From a virus, in IMG/VR virus record IMGVR_UViG_3300006131_000033: DNA of 40,509 nt, one strand, 5' to 3'. Positions within the stretch are counted from its first letter, which is position 1; every line of letters starts with the position of its first letter. Positions 4,440 through 38,528 of the stretch are shown here, in pieces. The translations under genes were made by a program, and so were the position numbers. The notes under the pieces were generated by a model. It was not told the origin of the DNA. It searched no databases and saw only the letters and a list, made by a program, of their open reading frames with translations.

Positions 4440-5267
4440 CTAATTTTCCTCCTCATTCTGGGCCTCTTCCATCAGATCAAAGAGGCTTATGGTCTCTTCT
4501 GTCTCAAAAAGAGTCTCTATCATTTCCTTTTGCGCTCGCATATAAAAAGATTTGTCAACCTCGAACCCATAAGATGGACGCCCTAATTCATACGCTGCCC
4601 GAAGTGTACTACCGCTTCCGGCGCACGGATCAATCACCACATCGCCCGGGTCAGTAAATAGCTTAATTAGACGTTTCAGCAGCTTCACAGGCTTTTGGGT
4701 CGGGTGAATTTTGGGGATCTCTTTCCCGTCCTTCTGCCACTCAAACCAGTTGAAAATCATTTTCCTGTCCCCGTAGACGTCCGTATTGCGAAATTTGGGA
4801 AGTTTGTCCCGGTAGAGAACAACGGCAAATTCCGTAGCCCCTACGATTTTCATGTTGGATTTGAGTACTTGGGCGGAGTAGTTCTTGCAGAAAAACAACG
4901 GATAGGATTTCATAAATCCATACCGCTTCCCATACTCAATCACCGTCTGCATCTGCTCGAAAGCACAGAACACGATCATGGCCGGAGCCTGCCCAGGCTC
5001 TTTTGGCTCCTTCCGCAAAAGCCGATTGCAAAAGTGCATATACTCCGCAATCTTAAAAGAGCCGTCTGTGTGAAAAAATGACGCCTTCGCCAGCTTACTT
5101 TCGCCCTGCTTGTTGTCCCCGCCGTTGTACCACAGGGGATTGCTCGCATAGGCGTCCGCCCCAATGTTGTATGGAATATCCGCAATCACCAGTTGGGCCT
5201 TTGGGATGTAGTAGCGCTTGAAATTCTGGAAGTTATCGTGGTAGAGTTCACACTTTACCTTTTCCAT
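4440..5267 (-). CDS. DNA methyltransferase, N6-adenine/N4-cytosine type (beta class)
   Basis: Motif IV-like ADIPYN is N-terminal. HPTQKP and FTDPGDVVIDPCAGSGST (motif I) are C-terminal. Confidence 0.9.
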   Translation of the reverse strand: MEKVKCELYHDNFQNFKRYYIPKAQLVIADIPYNIGADAYASNPLWYNGGDNKQGESKLAKASFFHTDGSFKIAEYMHFCNRLLRKEPKEPGQAPAMIVFCAFEQMQTVIEYGKRYGFMKSYPLFFCKNYSAQVLKSNMKIVGATEFAVVLYRDKLPKFRNTDVYGDRKMIFNWFEWQKDGKEIPKIHPTQKPVKLLKRLIKLFTDPGDVVIDPCAGSGSTLRAAYELGRPSYGFEVDKSFYMRAQKEMIETLFETEETISLFDLMEEAQNEEEN

Positions 5268-5385
5268 GCTGCTCCTCCTTCTCCTTGGGCACCTTTCGGA
5301 AAGTGCAGCCGTTGGTCTTTTTGTTCCCGTGGAAGTAGGTTCGGAAGGCCCCGCCGGCGGGGGTCTTGTATGCTTTCTTTTTCAT
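5248..5385 (-). CDS. Possible small basic protein (45 aa)
   Basis: ATGA overlap with the stop of the C5 methyltransferase gene. Translation is MKKKAYKTPAGGAFRTYFHGNKKTNGCTFRKVPKEKEEQHGKGKV. It overlaps the start of the next gene by 20 nt and is below the ORF-track cutoff. Confidence 0.3.
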   Translation of the reverse strand: MKKKAYKTPAGGAFRTYFHGNKKTNGCTFRKVPKEKEEQHGKGKV

Positions 5386-7217
5386 ACTGCCACCGCCTCC
5401 TCCAGCTCCGCCATTGTTGTGATCTCACGGTCACACCACTCGGGCAGGTTTGCCCGGACCAGAGCCGTGGCAAAGGGCGGCGGCACAGCGTTTCCACATC
5501 TCGCCACTTGCTTAGATTTCCCGTACTCGTTGCCCATGTAATCCCGGTCAATGATGTAATCCACGGGGAATCCCATAGCGTTGTAAAGCTCCCGAGGGGT
5601 CAACATACGCAGGAGAAGGTCCCGGATGTAGTAGAACACCCCGCCGATCACCAGCAGGATGATCTCATCCTCAGCCATGTGGTAGCCACAATGCTGGTTG
5701 AGCAGCGCCAGAACCTCTGGCCAGTGCCCCAGGTCCGCTCCTGGCTCAACTTTGGAGATCACCGCCTGACAAATGGCGAACTCTCCACCCCCAGCCGTAA
5801 TCGTCTGAATAGGATGATCCGCTGGATGGCCCAAGTCTTGACCTTTGAACTTGACAATATGGGCCGCTGTCAGGGCCTCCCGGTCGTGGGAGGTGACCGT
5901 GTGCATGGGTTCCGCCAGGTCAAGGGGCCGCCCGGTGCTAAAATACTCCACCAGATTGGCGCTTACCAGACTGTAACGGTTGGCGGCGTCCACCGTCTGG
6001 AGGGGTGCATGGAGGCCCTGTCCCCTCACAGCTTCGGTCTGCTCGGTGTGGTATTGAGCAAGGTGGGCGGCGCTCAAAATCTGCCCCCCGGCGGTTCGTA
6101 CCGTCCCCACCGGCTGATCTGCTTGCTGTCCTACGGAGCCGCCGGTGTTGCTGAATGTAATAGGGGCGATAACCGGGGCGCATACCCCCTGCGTATGCTT
6201 TGCAGTAATGGTTCCAAGTGGCTTTCCCACCTCGGCAATGTGGCCGTCGCCGGAGTGGTTGCACTCTGCCAAGAATGGGGCCAGTTCCGGGACACACAGA
6301 TTTTGCTTTACCGTGGAGACCACAGTGGAAAGCGGGGCTTCAATGTCATGTACTCTCGGAGCTTGCCCTTTCCGTTCACCGTACCCAGTCGGGACAATAA
6401 AGGGCTTTCCACTGCGGATGGTAAACTTATCCGTTCCTCGGATCACCCGGCGCATGGTGTTATCAGCCAGGGGCCGCACCACCGTGGCGCCGTATTTTTC
6501 CTTGATCTCCGCCTTACTCGCAAAGACAGAGTACATGGGAAGGCTCCAGTCAATGATCTCCGAAGCCGCCCGCCAGGGCTTGCACTTGCCGCTCTTGACC
6601 TCCTCGCTGTCGGGGTGGGCGTGGGTGTGATCCGGCCAGACGATAGGCTTACCGTCACAGCGGGCGATCAGGAAAAACCGCTTACGGATGGTGGGGGCAC
6701 CATAATCCGCTGCCACCAGTTCCCGGTGTTCAATGTCATAGCCGAGATCCAAAAGCTGTTTTTTCCATTTCCTGAAGGTCTGGCCCGCCTTCTTCTTCAC
6801 AGGCTTGCCTTTCCGTACTGGCCCCCATGTCTGGAACTCCTCGACATTCTCCAAGATGATGACCCGAGGACGAACCTTGGCCGCCCAGCGAAGAACAATC
6901 CATGCAAGGCCTCGGATTTTGCGGTCTACTAAGGCCGCTCCTTTTGCCTTGCTGAAATGCTTACAGTCTGGGGAAAACCACGCAAGGCCGACAGGACGGC
7001 CAGCACATACCTCCACCGGGTCTACATCCCAAACGCTTGCTTGATAATGCGTAGTGTGATGGTGGTTGGTTTTGTGCATCAAAATGGCATCTGGGTCATG
7101 GTTGACCGCTATTTCTACCACCCGCCCGGTTGCCAACTCGATCCCAGTGGATGCACCGCCACCGCCAGCGAAGTTGTCCACGATGATTTCATCGTAAAGA
7201 TTGATCTGTGCTTTCAT
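5382..7217 (-). CDS. dcm: DNA (cytosine-5) methyltransferase with an unusually long variable region
   Basis: Motif I is DNFAGGGG, motif IV is FSPDCKHFS, motif VI is ILENVEEF, motif VIII is TIRKRFFLIA, and motif X is CGNAVPPP near the C-terminus. 611 aa. Confidence 0.9.
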   Translation of the reverse strand: MKAQINLYDEIIVDNFAGGGGASTGIELATGRVVEIAVNHDPDAILMHKTNHHHTTHYQASVWDVDPVEVCAGRPVGLAWFSPDCKHFSKAKGAALVDRKIRGLAWIVLRWAAKVRPRVIILENVEEFQTWGPVRKGKPVKKKAGQTFRKWKKQLLDLGYDIEHRELVAADYGAPTIRKRFFLIARCDGKPIVWPDHTHAHPDSEEVKSGKCKPWRAASEIIDWSLPMYSVFASKAEIKEKYGATVVRPLADNTMRRVIRGTDKFTIRSGKPFIVPTGYGERKGQAPRVHDIEAPLSTVVSTVKQNLCVPELAPFLAECNHSGDGHIAEVGKPLGTITAKHTQGVCAPVIAPITFSNTGGSVGQQADQPVGTVRTAGGQILSAAHLAQYHTEQTEAVRGQGLHAPLQTVDAANRYSLVSANLVEYFSTGRPLDLAEPMHTVTSHDREALTAAHIVKFKGQDLGHPADHPIQTITAGGGEFAICQAVISKVEPGADLGHWPEVLALLNQHCGYHMAEDEIILLVIGGVFYYIRDLLLRMLTPRELYNAMGFPVDYIIDRDYMGNEYGKSKQVARCGNAVPPPFATALVRANLPEWCDREITTMAELEEAVAV

Positions 7218-9180: not shown

Positions 9181-9383
9181 ACGCCTCCCCCCTTCCGGGC
9201 AACTCCTGTTTGGTGCCATCCGTCAGACAGCCGGGCCATAGCGATCTTGGCCCCACGCTCGGTCCGGTAGTTCTTGGTATGAATCAGGCGGCCGTTTCTT
9301 CCCCTGACGGTCAAACAGACACCGCCGCTCTTGGCCGTGCGGATAGTAGCCACGCAGCCATAGAAGTCGTGGTAAATCTTCAT
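9162..9383 (-). CDS. Small hypothetical protein
   Basis: Start moved to ATG 9383 (AAGGAGAAG upstream). Translation is MKIYHDFYGCVATIRTAKSGGVCLTVRG... Confidence 0.55.
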   Translation of the reverse strand: MKIYHDFYGCVATIRTAKSGGVCLTVRGRNGRLIHTKNYRTERGAKIAMARLSDGWHQTGVARKGGGVCPARA

Positions 9384-9420
9384 AGGATACTTCTCCTTTC
9401 CGTCCTTTTTATTGGACAGG

Positions 9421-9636
9421 TCATGTGGTACGCTGGGACTGATCCAGTTCAATAATGCGGGCGATAGGGACACTGAACGCCTCCGCAAGCCCAGCGGCTA
9501 CGGTGACATCCATCTTCTTCTGACGGTCACCATTCTCGATAGCGCAGTAGTAGCTTTCGGAAATGTGAAGTCTATCACCCATTTCCTTCATAGTGTAGCC
9601 CTTCTCAATGCGCAAAATTTTTAGCCATTCTCTCAT
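9421..9636 (-). CDS. Cro-like XRE-family HTH regulator
   Basis: LRIEKGYTMKEMGDRLHISESYYCAIENG is an XRE HTH. First gene of the minus-strand early operon, divergent from the repressor. Confidence 0.8.
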   Translation of the reverse strand: MREWLKILRIEKGYTMKEMGDRLHISESYYCAIENGDRQKKMDVTVAAGLAEAFSVPIARIIELDQSQRTT

Positions 9637-9790
9637 TTTTTCACCCCCCTAAACTTCTCAAATTGTGAAGTTCAAGAGTATAATAAACCTATCTTCTCAA
9701 AATGTCAAGTTTTTTCTTGTCAATTTGAAAAGTTCTATTTACTTTTCATTTTGTGAAGTGTAGAATGGGAGCAGAAAGGGAGGGAGCGAT
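9637..9790. promoter_or_regulatory. Divergent lysis-lysogeny switch with four 17-bp operators and two promoters
   Basis: Operators are CTTnTCAwwwTGnnAAG at 9654-9670, 9693-9709, 9716-9732 and 9742-9758. Minus-strand promoter: TTGACA (9703-9708), 17 nt, TATTAT (9680-9685). Plus-strand promoter: TTTACT (9738-9743), 17 nt, TAGAAT (9761-9766). Confidence 0.7.
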
Positions 9791-10135
9791 GTGCAAAACC
9801 GTATTCGTGAAATCAGAAAGGCTCTTGGCCTCACAATGAAAGAATTGGGTGAGAGGGTTGACGCCGCTGAGAGTACAATATCCCAATATGAGACAGGGAA
9901 ACGGCAACCAGACAATGAAACCTTATTAAAACTGGGAGAGGCTTTAGATGTATCTGTCGGTTATCTGCTCGGCGTTGAGCCGAGAGAGGGTGACCGAGTT
10001 GTTACTATGGATGACTTCACCTATGCCCTACAGAACGAGGCCAAGACGCTCACTGATATGGACAAGCAGATATTGCTATCAATGGCGAAACAGTTGAATG
10101 AAGCGAGGCAGAAGAAAGATGAGGGAACTGACTGA
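9791..10135 (+). CDS. CI-like XRE-family repressor
   Basis: IREIRKALGLTMKELGERVDAAESTISQYETGKRQP is an XRE HTH. GTG start after GGGAGGGAG. Confidence 0.85.
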   Translation: MQNRIREIRKALGLTMKELGERVDAAESTISQYETGKRQPDNETLLKLGEALDVSVGYLLGVEPREGDRVVTMDDFTYALQNEAKTLTDMDKQILLSMAKQLNEARQKKDEGTD

Positions 10136-10583
10136 TATTTACAAGTGGTTTGAGGATAGGGATATTCTACTGTTTGACCGTCAACTGCCGTTCAGTAATG
10201 AGCAGTCGAAGGCCATAACGATCCGGTTGCGGGGCAACGATGTCACCGGGGTATTCCTTGACTTGGGCCGCATTGATACCTCCGCAGAAGAAGCCGTCAC
10301 CCTTCTCCATGAAGGTGGGCATTGTGCTACTGGAACCACCCACGCCATCGTTAGCCCCTTTGACCTGATAGCAAAGCACGAATACAAAGCAGATAAATGG
10401 GCTGTTCAGGGGGCCGTCACCAAAGAAGAGTTGGAAAATGCCCGAAAAAACGGATATAGAGAGATTTATGAGCTGGCCGATTTCTTCAATCTCACCGAGT
10501 CCTTTATGAAAAAAGTGGTTTGCTGGTACGACCATGGAAATCTCGATGTAGACCTCTACTATCCAAATATTGAAACAGCATAG
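10119..10583 (+). CDS. ImmA/IrrE-family zinc metallopeptidase (anti-repressor protease)
   Basis: HEGGH (HExxH) motif. It overlaps the end of the repressor gene, the ImmR/ImmA-type pairing. Confidence 0.75.
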   Translation: MRELTDIYKWFEDRDILLFDRQLPFSNEQSKAITIRLRGNDVTGVFLDLGRIDTSAEEAVTLLHEGGHCATGTTHAIVSPFDLIAKHEYKADKWAVQGAVTKEELENARKNGYREIYELADFFNLTESFMKKVVCWYDHGNLDVDLYYPNIETA

Positions 10584-10599
10584 AGGGAAGGGTAAGAAA

Positions 10600-11907
10600 A
10601 TGAAGAAACCGCCAAAATCTCGCATGACTTTTAATGATTTTTTTACGTTTTCTGGGTTAATCCTCGGATGTACATTTCTGCTTGTCCTCAAAAACGGGTG
10701 GTCATCTGATAGCGTTTGGGAAAAATTACTTATTTCCTTAATGGCAATTGGGTCGTTCTCCATATCCTTCAGCCGAAGGGCGAGGTATATTGTGGGTGCA
10801 ATCTTTTTTGGAATTGAAGCCGTCTTTATGTTATACCTGTCTGTCATAAATTGGGAGTGGAATATTGACTATATATTATTTACTGTTCTTGTTTGCTGCG
10901 TCTTTTTAATCCCTTGCGCTTTTCTGCTTGCAAAAGGATTAGACGGTAAAAGAAGCGTTTCGATTTCCAATGTCGATGTTATGACTGGCCCGCAATTTGA
11001 GGCTTTTTGTGGAGAATTGCTAAAACAGAACGGATTCCAGAATGTCCAAGTAATGGGTGGTTCTGGAGACCAGGGCGTGGACATCATTGCAAAAAAGGAA
11101 GGTCTTCGGTACGCTATACAGTGTAAGCGGTATTCAAGCAAATTGGGAAATACCCCAGTTCAAGAGGTTTTTTCGGGAAGAGTCCATTACGGATGCGATA
11201 TAGCCGTGGTAATGACAAATAACTATTTTACGGCAGGAGCGGCGGAGCTTGCCAGGTCAACCGGAGTTTTTCTTTGGGATAGAGACTGGATAAGTAATCA
11301 TATGCCCAGAAAGCAGAAAACGAGGAAGGCAAAATATTTAACATTTCGTTGGAGAAAACAAAAAGCGAAAAAAGAAAATTCTCTTGTGGATGCCCTATTA
11401 GAATACCTACCAAACATAAGCGACCAGTGGCATTTTACATTTCTGTGTGCCGATATATTGGAAAGCTACGGATTTCACTATGTGCAAATAAAGGACAACC
11501 GAGATATAATTGGGGCAAATTTGTGTGGAATGTTCGATGATAAATGGTATGTGATAAGTTGTGTTTTTACCGAAGGAATTGTGAATGCGGAAATTGTAAA
11601 TGCGATTTTGCGAGATAGGGATTCTTACAAAGTGGATTATGCCGCAATTATGACAACGGGTCATTTTGATGACATCCCCTCTGTTCCTGGCCTCTTTTTG
11701 TGGGATTACGAGTGGATAGTGAGCCACCCGCCAAAGCAGACATCAAGTCTTGAACAGTATCAATTATGGATTCAAGATCACGAGAGCATGGATAAGAATT
11801 TTGAGGAACAAGAAAGTATTAACCTATCTGATTTTGAGATAATGCAAATTTTAGGCCAGGAGAGGATATGGCGCAATAGACAAGCGGCGGGTCTCGACAA
11901 CGATTGA
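10600..11907 (+). CDS. Membrane protein with four TM helices and tandem Mrr_cat-like (PD-(D/E)XK) domains, the second degenerate
   Basis: TM segments are FFTFSGLILGCTFLLVL, LLISLMAIGSFSISF, IVGAIFFGIEAVFMLYLSVI and ILFTVLVCCVFLIPCAFLLA. Domain 1 reads FEAFCGELLKQNGF..GDQGVDIIA..YAIQCKRY..FLWDRDWI. Domain 2 reads FTFLCADILESYGF..RDIIGA..WYVISCVF..FLWDYEWI. The region is AT-richer than its flanks. Confidence 0.75.
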   Translation: MKKPPKSRMTFNDFFTFSGLILGCTFLLVLKNGWSSDSVWEKLLISLMAIGSFSISFSRRARYIVGAIFFGIEAVFMLYLSVINWEWNIDYILFTVLVCCVFLIPCAFLLAKGLDGKRSVSISNVDVMTGPQFEAFCGELLKQNGFQNVQVMGGSGDQGVDIIAKKEGLRYAIQCKRYSSKLGNTPVQEVFSGRVHYGCDIAVVMTNNYFTAGAAELARSTGVFLWDRDWISNHMPRKQKTRKAKYLTFRWRKQKAKKENSLVDALLEYLPNISDQWHFTFLCADILESYGFHYVQIKDNRDIIGANLCGMFDDKWYVISCVFTEGIVNAEIVNAILRDRDSYKVDYAAIMTTGHFDDIPSVPGLFLWDYEWIVSHPPKQTSSLEQYQLWIQDHESMDKNFEEQESINLSDFEIMQILGQERIWRNRQAAGLDND

Positions 11908-12012
11908 CCAAAGCAGAAGCCGGTAGCTACTCCAATGAAAGAACCCGTCCACTCTCGTGAACGGCGAAAGTGAAGGACCATTTTGTTAGCGTCAACAAAA
12001 AGGAGTATCCGA

Positions 12013-12867
12013 ATGGAAAAGGAATTGATCGCCAGACTGAAGCTGACCTTTGATGACATCGCCCACCAGACAGAGGACGGAGTGGAGTACTGGCTTGCCC
12101 GGGAGCTGCAGGATGTGCTGGGATATGCCAAATGGGATAAATTTCAAAATGTTCTTGAAAAGGCCATTATATCCTGTGAGAACAGCGGCAATAAAAGTTT
12201 AGACCATTTTCTCCAAGTGGGGAAAATGGTTCCCATCGGTTCAGGTGCAGAGAGGGAAATTGAAGACTTTATGCTCACCCGCTACGCCTGCTATCTGATT
12301 GCCATGAACGGCGACAGTTCTAAGAATGAAATTGCCTTTGCGCAGAGCTACTTTGCCGTCCAAACACGGAAGCAAGAGATTATTGAGGAGCGGCTTGAAC
12401 TGATCCACAGGCTTCAACTTCGGGAACAACTGCGTGATGCAGAAAAGAGACTATCTCAAAACATATACGATCGTGGCGTAGATGACAGCGGATTTGCCCG
12501 TATCCGTTCAAAGGGCGATAAGGCCCTCTTTGGTGGGCTTACCACCCAGCAGATGAAGGATCGTTATGGAGTCAAGAGCGGCGCCCTGGCTGACAAGCTC
12601 CCGGCGGTTACTATTGCGGCTAAAACCCTTGCAACAGAGATGACTAATTTGAATATTGAGCAAAAAGATATTCAGGGAGAGCAGCCTATCACAGACGAGC
12701 ATGTCCAGAACAATAGAAGTATCCGGAAGATGTTGACTGACCGTGGCATTCGCCCGGAAACACTTCCACCTGAGGAGGATATCAAAAAGCTGGAACGCAG
12801 AGTGAAGAAGGAAGAAAAGCAGCTCGCCGACAAGGAAAAAATAAATCCTCCAGAAACAGAGCAATAA
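12013..12867 (+). CDS. dinD: DinD-like (DNA-damage-inducible protein D family) protein
   Basis: Collinear with E. coli DinD as I recall it: W.ARELQ..LGY, CENSG, LTRYACYL, FAVQTRKQE, LFGG. ATG 12013 after AAAAGGAG. Confidence 0.75.
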   Translation: MEKELIARLKLTFDDIAHQTEDGVEYWLARELQDVLGYAKWDKFQNVLEKAIISCENSGNKSLDHFLQVGKMVPIGSGAEREIEDFMLTRYACYLIAMNGDSSKNEIAFAQSYFAVQTRKQEIIEERLELIHRLQLREQLRDAEKRLSQNIYDRGVDDSGFARIRSKGDKALFGGLTTQQMKDRYGVKSGALADKLPAVTIAAKTLATEMTNLNIEQKDIQGEQPITDEHVQNNRSIRKMLTDRGIRPETLPPEEDIKKLERRVKKEEKQLADKEKINPPETEQ

Positions 12868-12997
12868 AAAACCGCCCCCGATGCGCCAACACCGAGAGCG
12901 GAAGATGCAAAGACCCGACCAACCACGATCAAGGCCCTACTGCCCACTTATTCTACAACAAAAAGGGCGGGGCCGCAAGCGAAAGGAGAAATTTTGC

Positions 12998-14056
12998 TTG
13001 AAAGTACCAAAGGCCCGCAAGCTGCCATCGGGGGTGTGGTTCATCCAACTGCGTTTAGGCGGGGAAAGTATTCCCGTCTCGGCACGGACGGAAAAAGAAT
13101 GTATCAGGCAGGCTCAGCTTATCAAGGCCGAGCATCTGACCGGGAAACGCAGAAAAAGCGAAAAGATACAGGATAAAGACGCCACACTTGGAGAGGCAAT
13201 AGACGCTTATATCGCTTCAAGGTCAAATGTCATATCCCCTTCCACGCTGACCGGATACGATAAAATCAGGCGGACAAGGTTTCAAGATGAGATGGGGCGG
13301 GAGTTGTCATTGATCCTACCGAGAGAATGGGTGTCCATCGTAAACAAAGAGGCATCACTCGTTGGAGCAAAAACACTAAAAAATGCCTGGGCGCTCGTTC
13401 GGTCATCGGTCAAATATTATACCGGTGAGCAGCTTCCAGAAGTACCTCTTCCCCAGTCTGTACCAAATGAGAGACCATTTCTCGACCCGGAGCAAATAAA
13501 GATATTTATGGGCGCAATTCACGGGGGAAAATACGAGATTCCCTTACTTTTGGCCTTGTCCAGTTTGCGGCAATCGGAAATATTGGGATTGCAATGGGGA
13601 CAGGTGGACCTAAAAAGACGGGTAATACACGTCAAAGGATCTGTTGTTTACTCAAAGGGCGGGATGGTGGCGAAGCCAGAAAATAAAAACAGAAGCTCAA
13701 CGAGAACCGTTCCCATATTGATGGATGAATTATATAATGCACTCAAAAGCGAGCAAAAAACGACAGGACCGGTGGCATATTATGCGCCAACAACAATGAG
13801 GCGATATATCCTATCTATCTGTGAGGAAAATGGATTGCCATCGGTCTCTATACATTGCTTGCGCCACTCATTTGCATCGCTGGCCTACCATCTGGGAGTG
13901 CCAGAAAAGGTTACAATGGAAATCGGTGGGTGGTCCGATGACCACACCATGAAGAAAATATATACTCATATAGCGCGGTCAGATATAGACCGTTACACAG
14001 CAGCCTTCGGTGATTTTTTCTCAAAAAACGCTAACGAGAATGCTAATCAAGAATAA
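12998..14056 (+). CDS. int: Tyrosine recombinase / phage integrase
   Basis: LRQSEILGL (Arg box), HCLRHSF (HxxR) and KIYTHI (catalytic Tyr). Start set at TTG 12998 after GGAG. The open frame extends to 12881, but that extension is low-complexity basic. Confidence 0.85.
   Translation: MKVPKARKLPSGVWFIQLRLGGESIPVSARTEKECIRQAQLIKAEHLTGKRRKSEKIQDKDATLGEAIDAYIASRSNVISPSTLTGYDKIRRTRFQDEMGRELSLILPREWVSIVNKEASLVGAKTLKNAWALVRSSVKYYTGEQLPEVPLPQSVPNERPFLDPEQIKIFMGAIHGGKYEIPLLLALSSLRQSEILGLQWGQVDLKRRVIHVKGSVVYSKGGMVAKPENKNRSSTRTVPILMDELYNALKSEQKTTGPVAYYAPTTMRRYILSICEENGLPSVSIHCLRHSFASLAYHLGVPEKVTMEIGGWSDDHTMKKIYTHIARSDIDRYTAAFGDFFSKNANENANQE
14023..14053 (+). repeat. att-flanking direct repeat, left copy (inside the int 3' end)
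   Basis: AAAAAACGCTAACGAGAATGCTAATCAAGAA matches 14253-14283 at 25 of 31 positions. Confidence 0.55.
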
Positions 14057-14090
14057 GATACATTGCAGAGCAAGCGGTTTAAGGTTTCTA

Positions 14091-14120
14091 TTCGGGGTTC
14101 GACTCCCCCCGCCTCCACCA
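14091..14120 (+). other. attP core candidate: 3' end of a tRNA/tmRNA-like gene (T-arm, acceptor 3' strand, ACCA)
   Basis: TTCGGGGTTCGACTCCCCCCGCCTCCACCA lies immediately after int. No complete cloverleaf is found upstream. The 3' strand CGCCTCC with discriminator A is compatible with a tmRNA/Ala-type GGGGGCG acceptor or with GGAGGCG. Confidence 0.55.
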
Positions 14121-14130
14121 GAATGAAAAA

Positions 14131-14162
14131 CCCTGTATCTGAAATAGATACAGGGTTTTTCT
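14131..14162 (+). terminator. Intrinsic terminator after int and the tRNA-like end
   Basis: CCCTGTATCT-GAAAT-AGATACAGGG followed by TTTTTCT. Confidence 0.75.
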
Positions 14163-14252
14163 TACTCTTCCAAGGGCATTTGCGGGTTTTTATTTTATTC
14201 CGAAGAGGAAAAATTTTTCCCGTTTTTGGGTCAAAAAACACCTTCCTGAAAG

Positions 14253-14283
14253 AAAAAATGCTAATGAAAATGCTAATGAAAAG
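14253..14283 (+). repeat. att-flanking direct repeat, right copy (contains tandem TGCTAATGAAAA x2)
   Basis: AAAAAATGCTAATGAAAATGCTAATGAAAAG. See 14023-14053. Confidence 0.55.
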
Positions 14284-14312
14284 ACTCCCAGTGGTTAGCC
14301 ACTGGGAGTCTT
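14281..14312. terminator. Bidirectional terminator hairpin ending the late (lysis) operon
   Basis: AAGACTCCCAGTGG-TTAG-CCACTGGGAGTCTT, a 14-bp perfect stem with T-rich tracts on both sides, 3 nt after the holin stop. Confidence 0.75.
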
Positions 14313-14315
14313 TTC

Positions 14316-14783
14316 TTACATATCTGTATTATCTTTTTTGTCCGCCGCCTTATCCACCGTATCACGCAGCGCCGCAATAGCCTTCACCATCCAGCCGGCC
14401 ACAGGCGCCCCCATCTTGCCGGCGTTCTCGATGATGCTCCCCGCCTCAGTAAGTATGTACCAGGCGATCATCAGCGGGCACAAAAGCACAGTATAGCGGA
14501 TCGGCAGAGCTTGTCCCATATTATCCAGCAAAAGACTCATCACAAGGTCCAGCAAGCCCGCCACCGACACGGCAGCAATACACCCCGCTTTGTGCCACAA
14601 CCCATCACGGGCTACAGCACTGGACCATTTGCCGGTTTTCAGGGCGGCCCCCATGCCTGTGAGGACATCCATCCCCATGGACACCGCCCAGGCCACTACC
14701 AACCACCCAAACCAGCCCCAGAGGGCCGTCAGGAGGCCCAGAGCAGCACTTACCGCCGCCTTAAAATGATTAACCTGCTCCAT
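14316..14783 (-). CDS. Holin (Phage_holin_4_1-like)
   Basis: Multiple TM segments. MDVLTGMGAALKTGKWSS and YILTEAGSIIENAGKMGAP match holin family 4 motifs. Adjacent to the endolysin. Confidence 0.8.
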   Translation of the reverse strand: MEQVNHFKAAVSAALGLLTALWGWFGWLVVAWAVSMGMDVLTGMGAALKTGKWSSAVARDGLWHKAGCIAAVSVAGLLDLVMSLLLDNMGQALPIRYTVLLCPLMIAWYILTEAGSIIENAGKMGAPVAGWMVKAIAALRDTVDKAADKKDNTDM

Positions 14784-38451: not shown

Positions 38452-38528
38452 TGGTGCTGCCACCCGGATTTGAACCGGGAACCTATGAACCAACCCATCC
38501 ACCGCTCTACCTGTTGAGCTATGGCAGC
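38452..38528 (-). tRNA. tRNA-like gene with a non-canonical anticodon arm (isotype not assignable)
   Basis: Minus-strand sequence is GCTGCCA-TA-GCTC-AACAGGTA-GAGC-G-GTGGA-TGGGTTGG-TTCAT-AGGTT-CCCGG-TTCAAAT-CCGGG-TGGCAGC-A-CCA. The acceptor, D and T arms are perfect and CCA is encoded. The only foldable anticodon stem has two G-U pairs and an 8-nt loop without U33. Confidence 0.6.

Follow-up and report, generated by a model that had tools for sequence, protein, structure and literature searches.

Prophage superinfection-exclusion genes such as those of the lactococcal Sie2009 and Ltp type lie in the slot between repressor and integrase, are expressed as part of the lysogeny module and encode membrane-associated products that block incoming phage DNA; these are small, non-enzymatic membrane proteins or lipoproteins that block injection. 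Epona, from the chromosomal integron of Vibrio cholerae, is a single gene validated as an anti-phage system, with activity seen in E. coli, and is described as having a holin-type domain with two transmembrane (TM) segments and one Mrr_cat domain (bioRxiv 10.1101/2024.07.02.601686). SNIPE of E. coli, built of a TM segment, a DNA-binding DUF4041 domain and a GIY-YIG nuclease, resides at the membrane constitutively, its nuclease lying in the cytoplasm; it cuts lambda DNA during injection, is toxic once the TM segment is removed and acts as a direct defence and not by abortive infection, and its N-terminal regions are hypervariable among homologues (bioRxiv 10.1101/2025.11.03.685801). Here we analyzed a candidate nuclease gene at positions 10600..11907 (+ strand) of a viral sequence of 40,509 nt, IMG/VR record IMGVR_UViG_3300006131_000033 (the window, meaning the whole stretch). 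It encodes a 435-residue protein with a predicted four-helix membrane module, a Mrr_cat domain that keeps its catalytic residues and a second Mrr_cat copy that has lost them. The most likely reading, to which we give about an even chance of being right, is that of a DNase made in lysogens and tethered to the membrane, where it keeps out incoming DNA.

Domain anatomy of the 435-residue protein

The gene starts 16 nt past the stop codon of an ImmA-like gene. Its longest open reading frame is 10570..11907 (+), with a TTG start, and the ATG at 10600 is preceded by GGGAAGGG; because the homologues P0001 and P0002 begin with MKKP or MKKA, the 435-residue reading is taken as correct. GC content over 10600-11800 is 0.39-0.43, compared with 0.52-0.57 in the adjoining phage DNA, which points to acquired cargo. 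The identical protein is encoded by 19 contigs, of which 13 measure 20-50 kb. The initial annotation of this DNA, made from the letters alone, had described an AT-richer stretch, four hydrophobic helices, a Mrr_cat core duplicated in a second copy with a lost catalytic lysine, a basic linker and an acidic tail, and all of these features were recovered here.

The N-terminal module (residues 11-114; 10630..10941, +) contains TM helices at residues 11-32, 39-57, 59-83 and 89-114, on which Kyte-Doolittle hydropathy and the AlphaFold2 model agree (predicted local distance difference test, pLDDT, ~80-89). Lysine and arginine residues are concentrated at the N-terminus (+4), behind TM2 (SRRAR) and behind TM4 (KGLDGKR), a positive-inside pattern from which an N-in/C-in topology is predicted, with the nuclease facing the cytoplasm. 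No holin family was found for residues 1-120 in Pfam or PHROGs.

A Mrr_cat domain of the PD-(D/E)XK type follows at residues 120-236 (10957..11307, +; pLDDT >90). The Pfam Mrr_cat family (PF04471) matches the protein at 3.8e-34 (117.7 bits, the cutoff being 21) over two stretches. In the first of these the catalytic E/D/(Q/E)xK set is complete, and E134, D157, D161, Q174 and K176 (the last two in a Q174-C-K176 motif) are invariant across 41 homologues. Foldseek returned PD-(D/E)XK nucleases only (1y88, MspJI, EndoMS, Hjc and AspBHI); archaeal AF1548 (1y88) was the best match in the sequence comparison (E = 0.0021) as in the structural one (E = 1.1e-4), and the sole match when the PDB was searched by sequence. 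Pfam revealed no modification-reading domain (Mrr_N, SRA or YTH) in the protein. A 28.9-bit match to NA-iREase1 (PF22722, an inactive restriction endonuclease family) covers residues 133-220, which is the active copy, and lies beneath the far stronger Mrr_cat match; membership was rejected. NCBIfam gave no match, and PHROGs gave weak matches to families of unknown function only, with none for the TM module or for the dead domain plus tail.

A basic linker (residues 237-259, RKQKTRKAKYLTFRWRKQKAKKE; 11308..11376, +), modeled as disordered (pLDDT <50), leads to the second Mrr_cat copy (residues 263-377; 11386..11730, +), for which AlphaFold2 gives the same fold at pLDDT 70-88. Aligned with each other, the two halves are 27% identical (E = 4e-14), and a hidden Markov model (HMM) of the core built in this analysis recovers the second copy at residues 278-375 (E ~1e-7). 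The counterparts of E134, D157, D161, Q174 and K176 are T280, I303, N307, S320 and V322, respectively, and the catalytic set is therefore absent from this copy. The protein ends in a net acidic tail of two helices (residues 381-403 and 411-429 in the AlphaFold2 model; 11740..11886, +) that terminates in GQERIWRNRQ (11854-11883), a degenerate form of the GEELKWRRxQ motif of its relatives.

A recurrent lysogeny slot and a modular Clostridial family

The window, which is the JGI metagenome contig Ga0080690_1000221 (3300006099), is a temperate gut myovirus of ~40.5 kb, with portal, large terminase, major capsid, tail sheath, holin and CHAP lysin genes on the minus strand and a co-oriented plus-strand lysogeny block at 9791-14056, in the order repressor, ImmA-like gene, nuclease, DinD-like gene and integrase. 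The initial annotation had placed the nuclease gene between ImmA and int on the repressor strand; the ImmA side of this placement stands, but a DinD-like gene (11983..12867) separates the nuclease gene from int. Its placement of the gene in the lysogeny operon gained support. Full-length relatives are few (P0001, 91% identical; P0002, 83%; P0004, 46%), and all lie between a repressor and a same-strand integrase, the repressor being HTH_3 with an ImmA-like gene in one case and of the S24 type (P0004) in the other. The repressor-to-integrase slot recurs in every relative examined, namely P0002, P0004, P0005, P0089, P0019 and Roseburia phage Jekyll.

We counted neighbors at 80 viral-contig loci and 78 species-genome loci of the wider family. 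A same-strand recombinase lies downstream at 45 of the 80 viral loci (within 3.5 kb) and at 12 of the 78 species-genome loci (within 2.5 kb), and any recombinase is present at 48/80 and 17/78, respectively. An Xre/CI-type helix-turn-helix (HTH) gene occurs within 1.5 kb upstream at 47 viral and 15 species-genome loci, and an ImmA-like gene upstream at 12 and 5. No conserved partner gene emerged, the 533 neighbors falling into 450 clusters.

Expression in lysogens is inferred from the co-oriented unit, the divergent promoter-like sites and a lone plus-strand terminator-like hairpin past int. The unit opens with the Xre/CI-type repressor (9791..10135, +; Pfam HTH_3 5.6e-16, Phage_CI_repr 1.4e-4) and the ImmA-like metalloprotease (10098..10583, +; PHROG phrog_87 metallo-protease 4.9e-17, Pfam Peptidase_M78 merely 0.049), whose genes overlap by 38 nt; the later gaps are 16 (ImmA to nuclease), 75 and 13 nt, and the tyrosine integrase (12881..14056, +; Pfam Phage_integrase 6.1e-15) is the last gene. 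Upstream, sites resembling promoters by consensus match only read into the operon within 9655..9766 (+; TTCTCA-18-TATAAT at 9655-9684 and TTTACT-17-TAGAAT at 9738-9766) and in the divergent direction at 9708-9680 (-; TTGACA-17-TATTAT). The hairpin (14125..14161, +; 17-bp stem), likewise a consensus match only, stands directly past int and is the sole one on the plus strand within 9300-14400. The switch region (9640-9790) holds the repeated operator-like words TTCTCAAAATTGTGAAGTT, TTCTCAAAATGTCAAGTT and TTTTGTGAAGTG, which overlap the promoter-like hexamers, and on its other side from the repressor is a cro-like gene (9421..9636, -).

A very large set of proteins, a family of gut Clostridia, shares the active nuclease core at ~60% identity. 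A word index gave 1175 matches to the core; at least 585 stretches were counted in species-representative genomes, mostly of Oscillospiraceae, Lachnospiraceae and Ruminococcus, and 295 in IMG/VR viral contigs. At least one TM segment lies upstream of the core in 105 of the 120 best matches. The cores form one BLAST cluster and the N-terminal regions 57 clusters, corresponding to at least 57 kinds of membrane module; one homologue, P0100, has the Pfam family Phage_holin_3_6 (PF07332) fused to the same core. Of the 273 distinct family proteins that were sampled, 79 have C-terminal extensions of at least 60 residues, and 54 of these extensions fall in one BLAST cluster. The flanks of the last TM segment carry 3.3 lysine or arginine residues on the nuclease side versus 0.85 on the opposite side (68 versus 16 of 87 distinct anchors), an excess that predicts a cytoplasmic nuclease for the whole family. 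The distribution of the family is patchy, and its members are mosaics exchanged by recombination. We found no published description in the literature of this Clostridial family, its lysogeny-slot habit or its tandem form.

Two further observations concern the wider family. A link between the nuclease core and FtsK recurs: FtsK_gamma (PF09397) is frequent among the precomputed Pfam matches of homologues, being fused to the core in many (e.g. P0005, P0012, P0017 and P0035), and full FtsK/SpoIIIE genes adjoin 3 of the ~38 chromosomal loci examined (among L016-L095, e.g. L026, L029 and L045). Loci L067, L071, L072, L075, L086 and L087, from metagenome-assembled genomes of Acetatifactor, encode minimal versions of 147-174 residues with one TM segment and the core, and in these six related genomes the nuclease gene is directly downstream of two Gate-domain genes (PF07670), the only conserved chromosomal neighborhood observed.

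The tandem of active and dead domains was seen in only two lineages among the 273 proteins, that of the window and that of P0019, whose anchor is of another, 2-TM kind and whose gene follows an HTH-S24 repressor. When 1.84 billion representatives of 50%-identity clusters were searched exhaustively with HMMER, the dead domain together with the tail serving as query, one strong cluster emerged. The duplication thus appears rare and lineage-specific. The other HMMER matches were weak and fell on active Mrr_cat domains, and the idea that the dead domain is a widespread module was rejected. The dead copy of the window protein is 47% identical to that of P0004, compared with 15% for the linker, which is consistent with a copy that is maintained though catalytically dead.

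Comparison of the window protein with P0002 gave amino-acid identities of 56% for the TM module, 93% for the first and 98% for the second Mrr_cat domain, and of 93-98% overall outside the TM module. Synonymous substitution rates (dS) were 1.76, 0.41 and 0.04, and ratios of nonsynonymous to synonymous rates (dN/dS) 0.18, 0.07 and 0.24, for the same three regions. We considered positive selection on the TM module and rejected it, as dN/dS is at most 0.24 throughout and dS differs sharply between regions; the pattern is that of module shuffling by recombination under purifying selection, as judged from these substitution rates. P0005 shares a TM module that is 82% identical and the same slot, and has an FtsK_gamma winged helix in place of the dead domain. 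An HMM of the TM module matches 18 of the 273 proteins, 17 of which also carry the C-terminal GEELKWRRxQ motif; the motif is present in 0 of the other 255. Across P0004-P0016, the 200-330 residues between the 4-TM module and the motif vary and hold a dead Mrr in some proteins and FtsK_gamma or an acidic linker in others. This pairing may simply reflect one clade, or it may indicate a functional pairing through an intramolecular contact or a common binding partner.

Proposed exclusion of incoming DNA and its alternatives

We propose that the nuclease gene is an accessory gene of the temperate myovirus that would be co-transcribed with the repressor, so that the protein would be made in lysogens. 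The four TM helices would hold it in the cytoplasmic membrane with the active Mrr_cat DNase toward the cytoplasm. Such tethering could both keep a non-specific nuclease off the nucleoid and put it at the site of DNA entry, so that superinfecting phage DNA would be cut at or just after entry; the outcome would be a nuclease-based superinfection exclusion, as with SNIPE. The dead Mrr_cat copy would most likely either bind DNA or serve the single active site as its partner in a pseudo-dimer; in sister proteins its position is taken by the winged helix of FtsK_gamma or by an acidic linker. The co-inherited 4-TM module and GEELKWRR-type C-terminal helix may make a regulatory contact.

The exclusion or defense role suggested by the initial annotation was upheld in part. 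The slot, the purifying selection on the catalytic residues and the predicted cytoplasmic side are consistent with it, viral contigs show the integrase link, and Foldseek bears out the nuclease fold. Several results weigh against it. PADLOC has no full-length model for the protein, and no sensor or self/non-self discriminator is recognizable in it. No recombinase lies within 8 kb at 61 of the 78 species-genome loci (~78%), and these recombinase-free loci are surrounded by ordinary genes (126 Pfam families among 150 neighbor proteins); about three-quarters of the chromosomal homologues thus sit among ordinary genes and outside defense islands, PADLOC detecting no defense-island enrichment around them and isolated restriction-modification or helicase matches only. 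The packing of the two Mrr_cat domains is not confident, the predicted template modeling score (pTM) being 0.43 in both AlphaFold2 models; the run on the soluble part (residues 116-435), which was aimed at pseudo-dimer packing, gave this pTM of 0.43 and four poor models. In addition, sequence alone does not separate direct exclusion from abortive infection.

The latter is the rival that survives best, although we regard it as unlikely. An abortive-infection effector would lie idle at the membrane until infection frees or activates the nuclease, which would then degrade host and phage DNA, or else the TM module would act as a holin-like pore; in either case the lysogen would die and the clonal population be spared. 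The TM part of Epona is described as a holin domain, P0100 carries Phage_holin_3_6 on the same core, Lamassu, Avs and other abortive systems use Mrr_cat as their effector, and the co-inherited 4-TM module and C-terminal helix could be an autoinhibitory latch. However, Pfam and PHROGs find no holin in residues 1-120 and the protein shows no sensor domain, and SNIPE, the best-studied membrane nuclease, defends directly.

It is more improbable that the protein is not anti-phage at all and that phages have borrowed a membrane-associated cellular enzyme of DNA processing, acting for example on septum or forespore DNA with FtsK/SpoIIIE, or limiting transformation or conjugation. The many species-genome loci that lie among housekeeping genes with no recombinase nearby would fit such a role, as would the FtsK/SpoIIIE neighbors at 3 of ~38 such loci, the FtsK_gamma fusions and the Gate-domain genes immediately upstream in the six Acetatifactor loci. 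Against this, no neighborhood is conserved family-wide, the family is patchy, mosaic and recombining, the link to the repressor-integrase slot in viral contigs is strong, and FtsK_gamma may be a mere winged-helix DNA binder.

A membrane-bound Type IV (modification-dependent) restriction enzyme that cuts methylated incoming DNA like E. coli Mrr is very improbable, for although Mrr_cat is the catalytic domain of Mrr, PADLOC gives weak mREase_IV matches (4.8e-5) and Foldseek matches the modification-dependent MspJI and AspBHI, these structural matches span the shared nuclease fold only, Pfam finds no Mrr_N, SRA or YTH domain, and the phage's own C5 and N6/N4 methyltransferases would endanger its DNA.

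Extending the proposed exclusion of incoming DNA to the whole family is possible, though doubtful: the Clostridial TM-Mrr_cat proteins could be the Gram-positive PD-(D/E)XK counterpart of SNIPE, a prophage-spread "injection-site nuclease" in which the N-terminal modules serve as adapters to phage entry routes, the accessory domain (dead Mrr, FtsK_gamma or none) grips DNA, and the 4-TM module and C-terminal helix of the window's clade gate cutting to an active entry channel. If exclusion by a tethered nuclease is true, the use of membrane-tethered nucleases to tell self from non-self by location would have arisen convergently, on at least two occasions and from unrelated nuclease folds, and would not be peculiar to E. 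coli SNIPE; temperate phages would have spread it widely among dominant Clostridia of the human and animal gut. This would matter for the phage resistance that prophages confer in the gut and for host range in phage therapy, and as a barrier to incoming DNA the nuclease would affect the genetic tractability of gut Clostridia.

Phage context and comparison with known systems

The DinD-like gene (DNA damage-inducible protein D, with a Bro-N domain), a second cargo gene between nuclease and int, lies at 11983..12867 (+), with gene callers putting its start at ~12013. It matches NCBIfam NF008573 (9e-110), Pfam Bro-N (5.9e-11) and PDC-S13 (1e-118), which is a candidate defense family of PADLOC, and it is absent from the lysogeny modules of the closest relatives (L001-L008). 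In the early region, the minus strand encodes a 275-residue N6/N4 DNA methyltransferase (4440-5267) and a 611-residue protein with an N-terminal C5-cytosine methylase domain (5382-7217). Pairing of the nuclease with these two methyltransferases as a restriction-modification system was rejected, since both of these early-region genes run on the opposite strand and relatives lack them. In the late region, near the terminase gene, there is a tRNA gene at 38452-38528 (-; Rfam 57.5 bits), for which ARAGORN settles on no identity and reports an anticodon of four bases (ggtt), so that its anticodon loop may be unusual. A megablast search with 25 kb of the window against GenBank phages returned one 65-nt match only.

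Defense profiles were taken from PADLOC-DB 2.0.0, which is older than Epona, and matched the 435-residue protein at the domain level only: the C-terminus of ZorD (8.8e-20), PDC-S02, LmuA and mREase_IV (4.8e-5). Membership of Zorya, Lamassu or PDC-S02 was rejected, as only the Mrr end of each profile was matched (positions 937-1064 of 1071 in ZorD). The partners of Zorya (ZorABC with the SNF2 helicase) and Lamassu (the SMC protein LmuB) are missing, the neighbors here being the repressor, ImmA, DinD-like and int genes. E. coli Mrr, Type IV enzymes and AF1548 share the catalytic fold and the D...QxK motif with the window protein; unlike it, they are soluble, have an N-terminal domain that reads modification or DNA, and lack both a membrane anchor and a dead duplicate. 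Mrr-type Type IV membership was likewise rejected, since Pfam finds no N-terminal recognition domain and the mREase_IV matches cover the catalytic region alone. The likeness to prophage exclusion proteins of the Sie2009 and Ltp type is one of description, and the window protein differs from them in carrying a nuclease.

A counterpart in a cultivated phage is VUE37434.1 of Roseburia phage Jekyll (LR596902.1), a "putative restriction endonuclease" whose core is 54% identical and which is membrane-anchored via a TM2 domain. It differs in its length of 280 residues, its anchor of a zinc ribbon and two TM segments, its single Mrr_cat domain and the lack of the tail motif. Jekyll is a cultivable temperate phage with the order Xre, ImmA-like, nuclease, HslV-like and serine integrase, and it thereby offers a cultivable system for the family. 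Two genes of the Jekyll locus (L014, 3498-7881), which carry the deposited names "anti-toxin, Xre-like" and "toxin component of TA system" (TA, toxin-antitoxin), correspond to the repressor and ImmA-like pair of the window; rather than a toxin-antitoxin pair, they may form an immunity switch.

SNIPE resembles the window protein in having an N-terminal membrane anchor and a cytoplasmic nuclease (a prediction for the latter protein), and in a conserved nuclease core with highly variable N-termini across homologues. Both also have an extra non-catalytic domain, which binds DNA in SNIPE and for which DNA binding is only proposed in the case of the dead Mrr or FtsK_gamma domains. SNIPE has one TM segment and the order TM, DNA-binding domain, nuclease, whereas the window protein has four TM helices, a PD-(D/E)XK nuclease and the order TM, nuclease, accessory domain. 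Pfam finds Mrr_cat-type families only, with neither DUF4041 nor GIY-YIG, so that SNIPE membership was rejected; there is no sequence relationship, and SNIPE is an analogy.

Epona, which we compared by its description and Pfam domain only, likewise combines a TM module and Mrr_cat in one polypeptide with no partner gene on a mobile platform, although for the window protein acting alone is inferred. It differs in that the window protein has four TM helices with no holin match in place of the 2-TM holin domain, a second, dead Mrr_cat and a conserved tail, and in that it belongs to a Clostridial prophage and a lysogeny operon, Epona being found in Vibrio. The initial annotation had not recognized the combination of TM helices with an active and a pseudo Mrr domain as a named defense family; a fusion of TM helices and Mrr_cat as such does have a name, in Epona. 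The idea of exclusion by a membrane nuclease is thus plausible but already known in kind, because Epona precedes it in its TM-plus-Mrr architecture and SNIPE in its mechanism. The rare feature of the window protein, as far as sequence comparison goes, is the tandem of active and dead Mrr_cat domains, which together with the FtsK_gamma swap makes a natural experiment on the role of the accessory domain.

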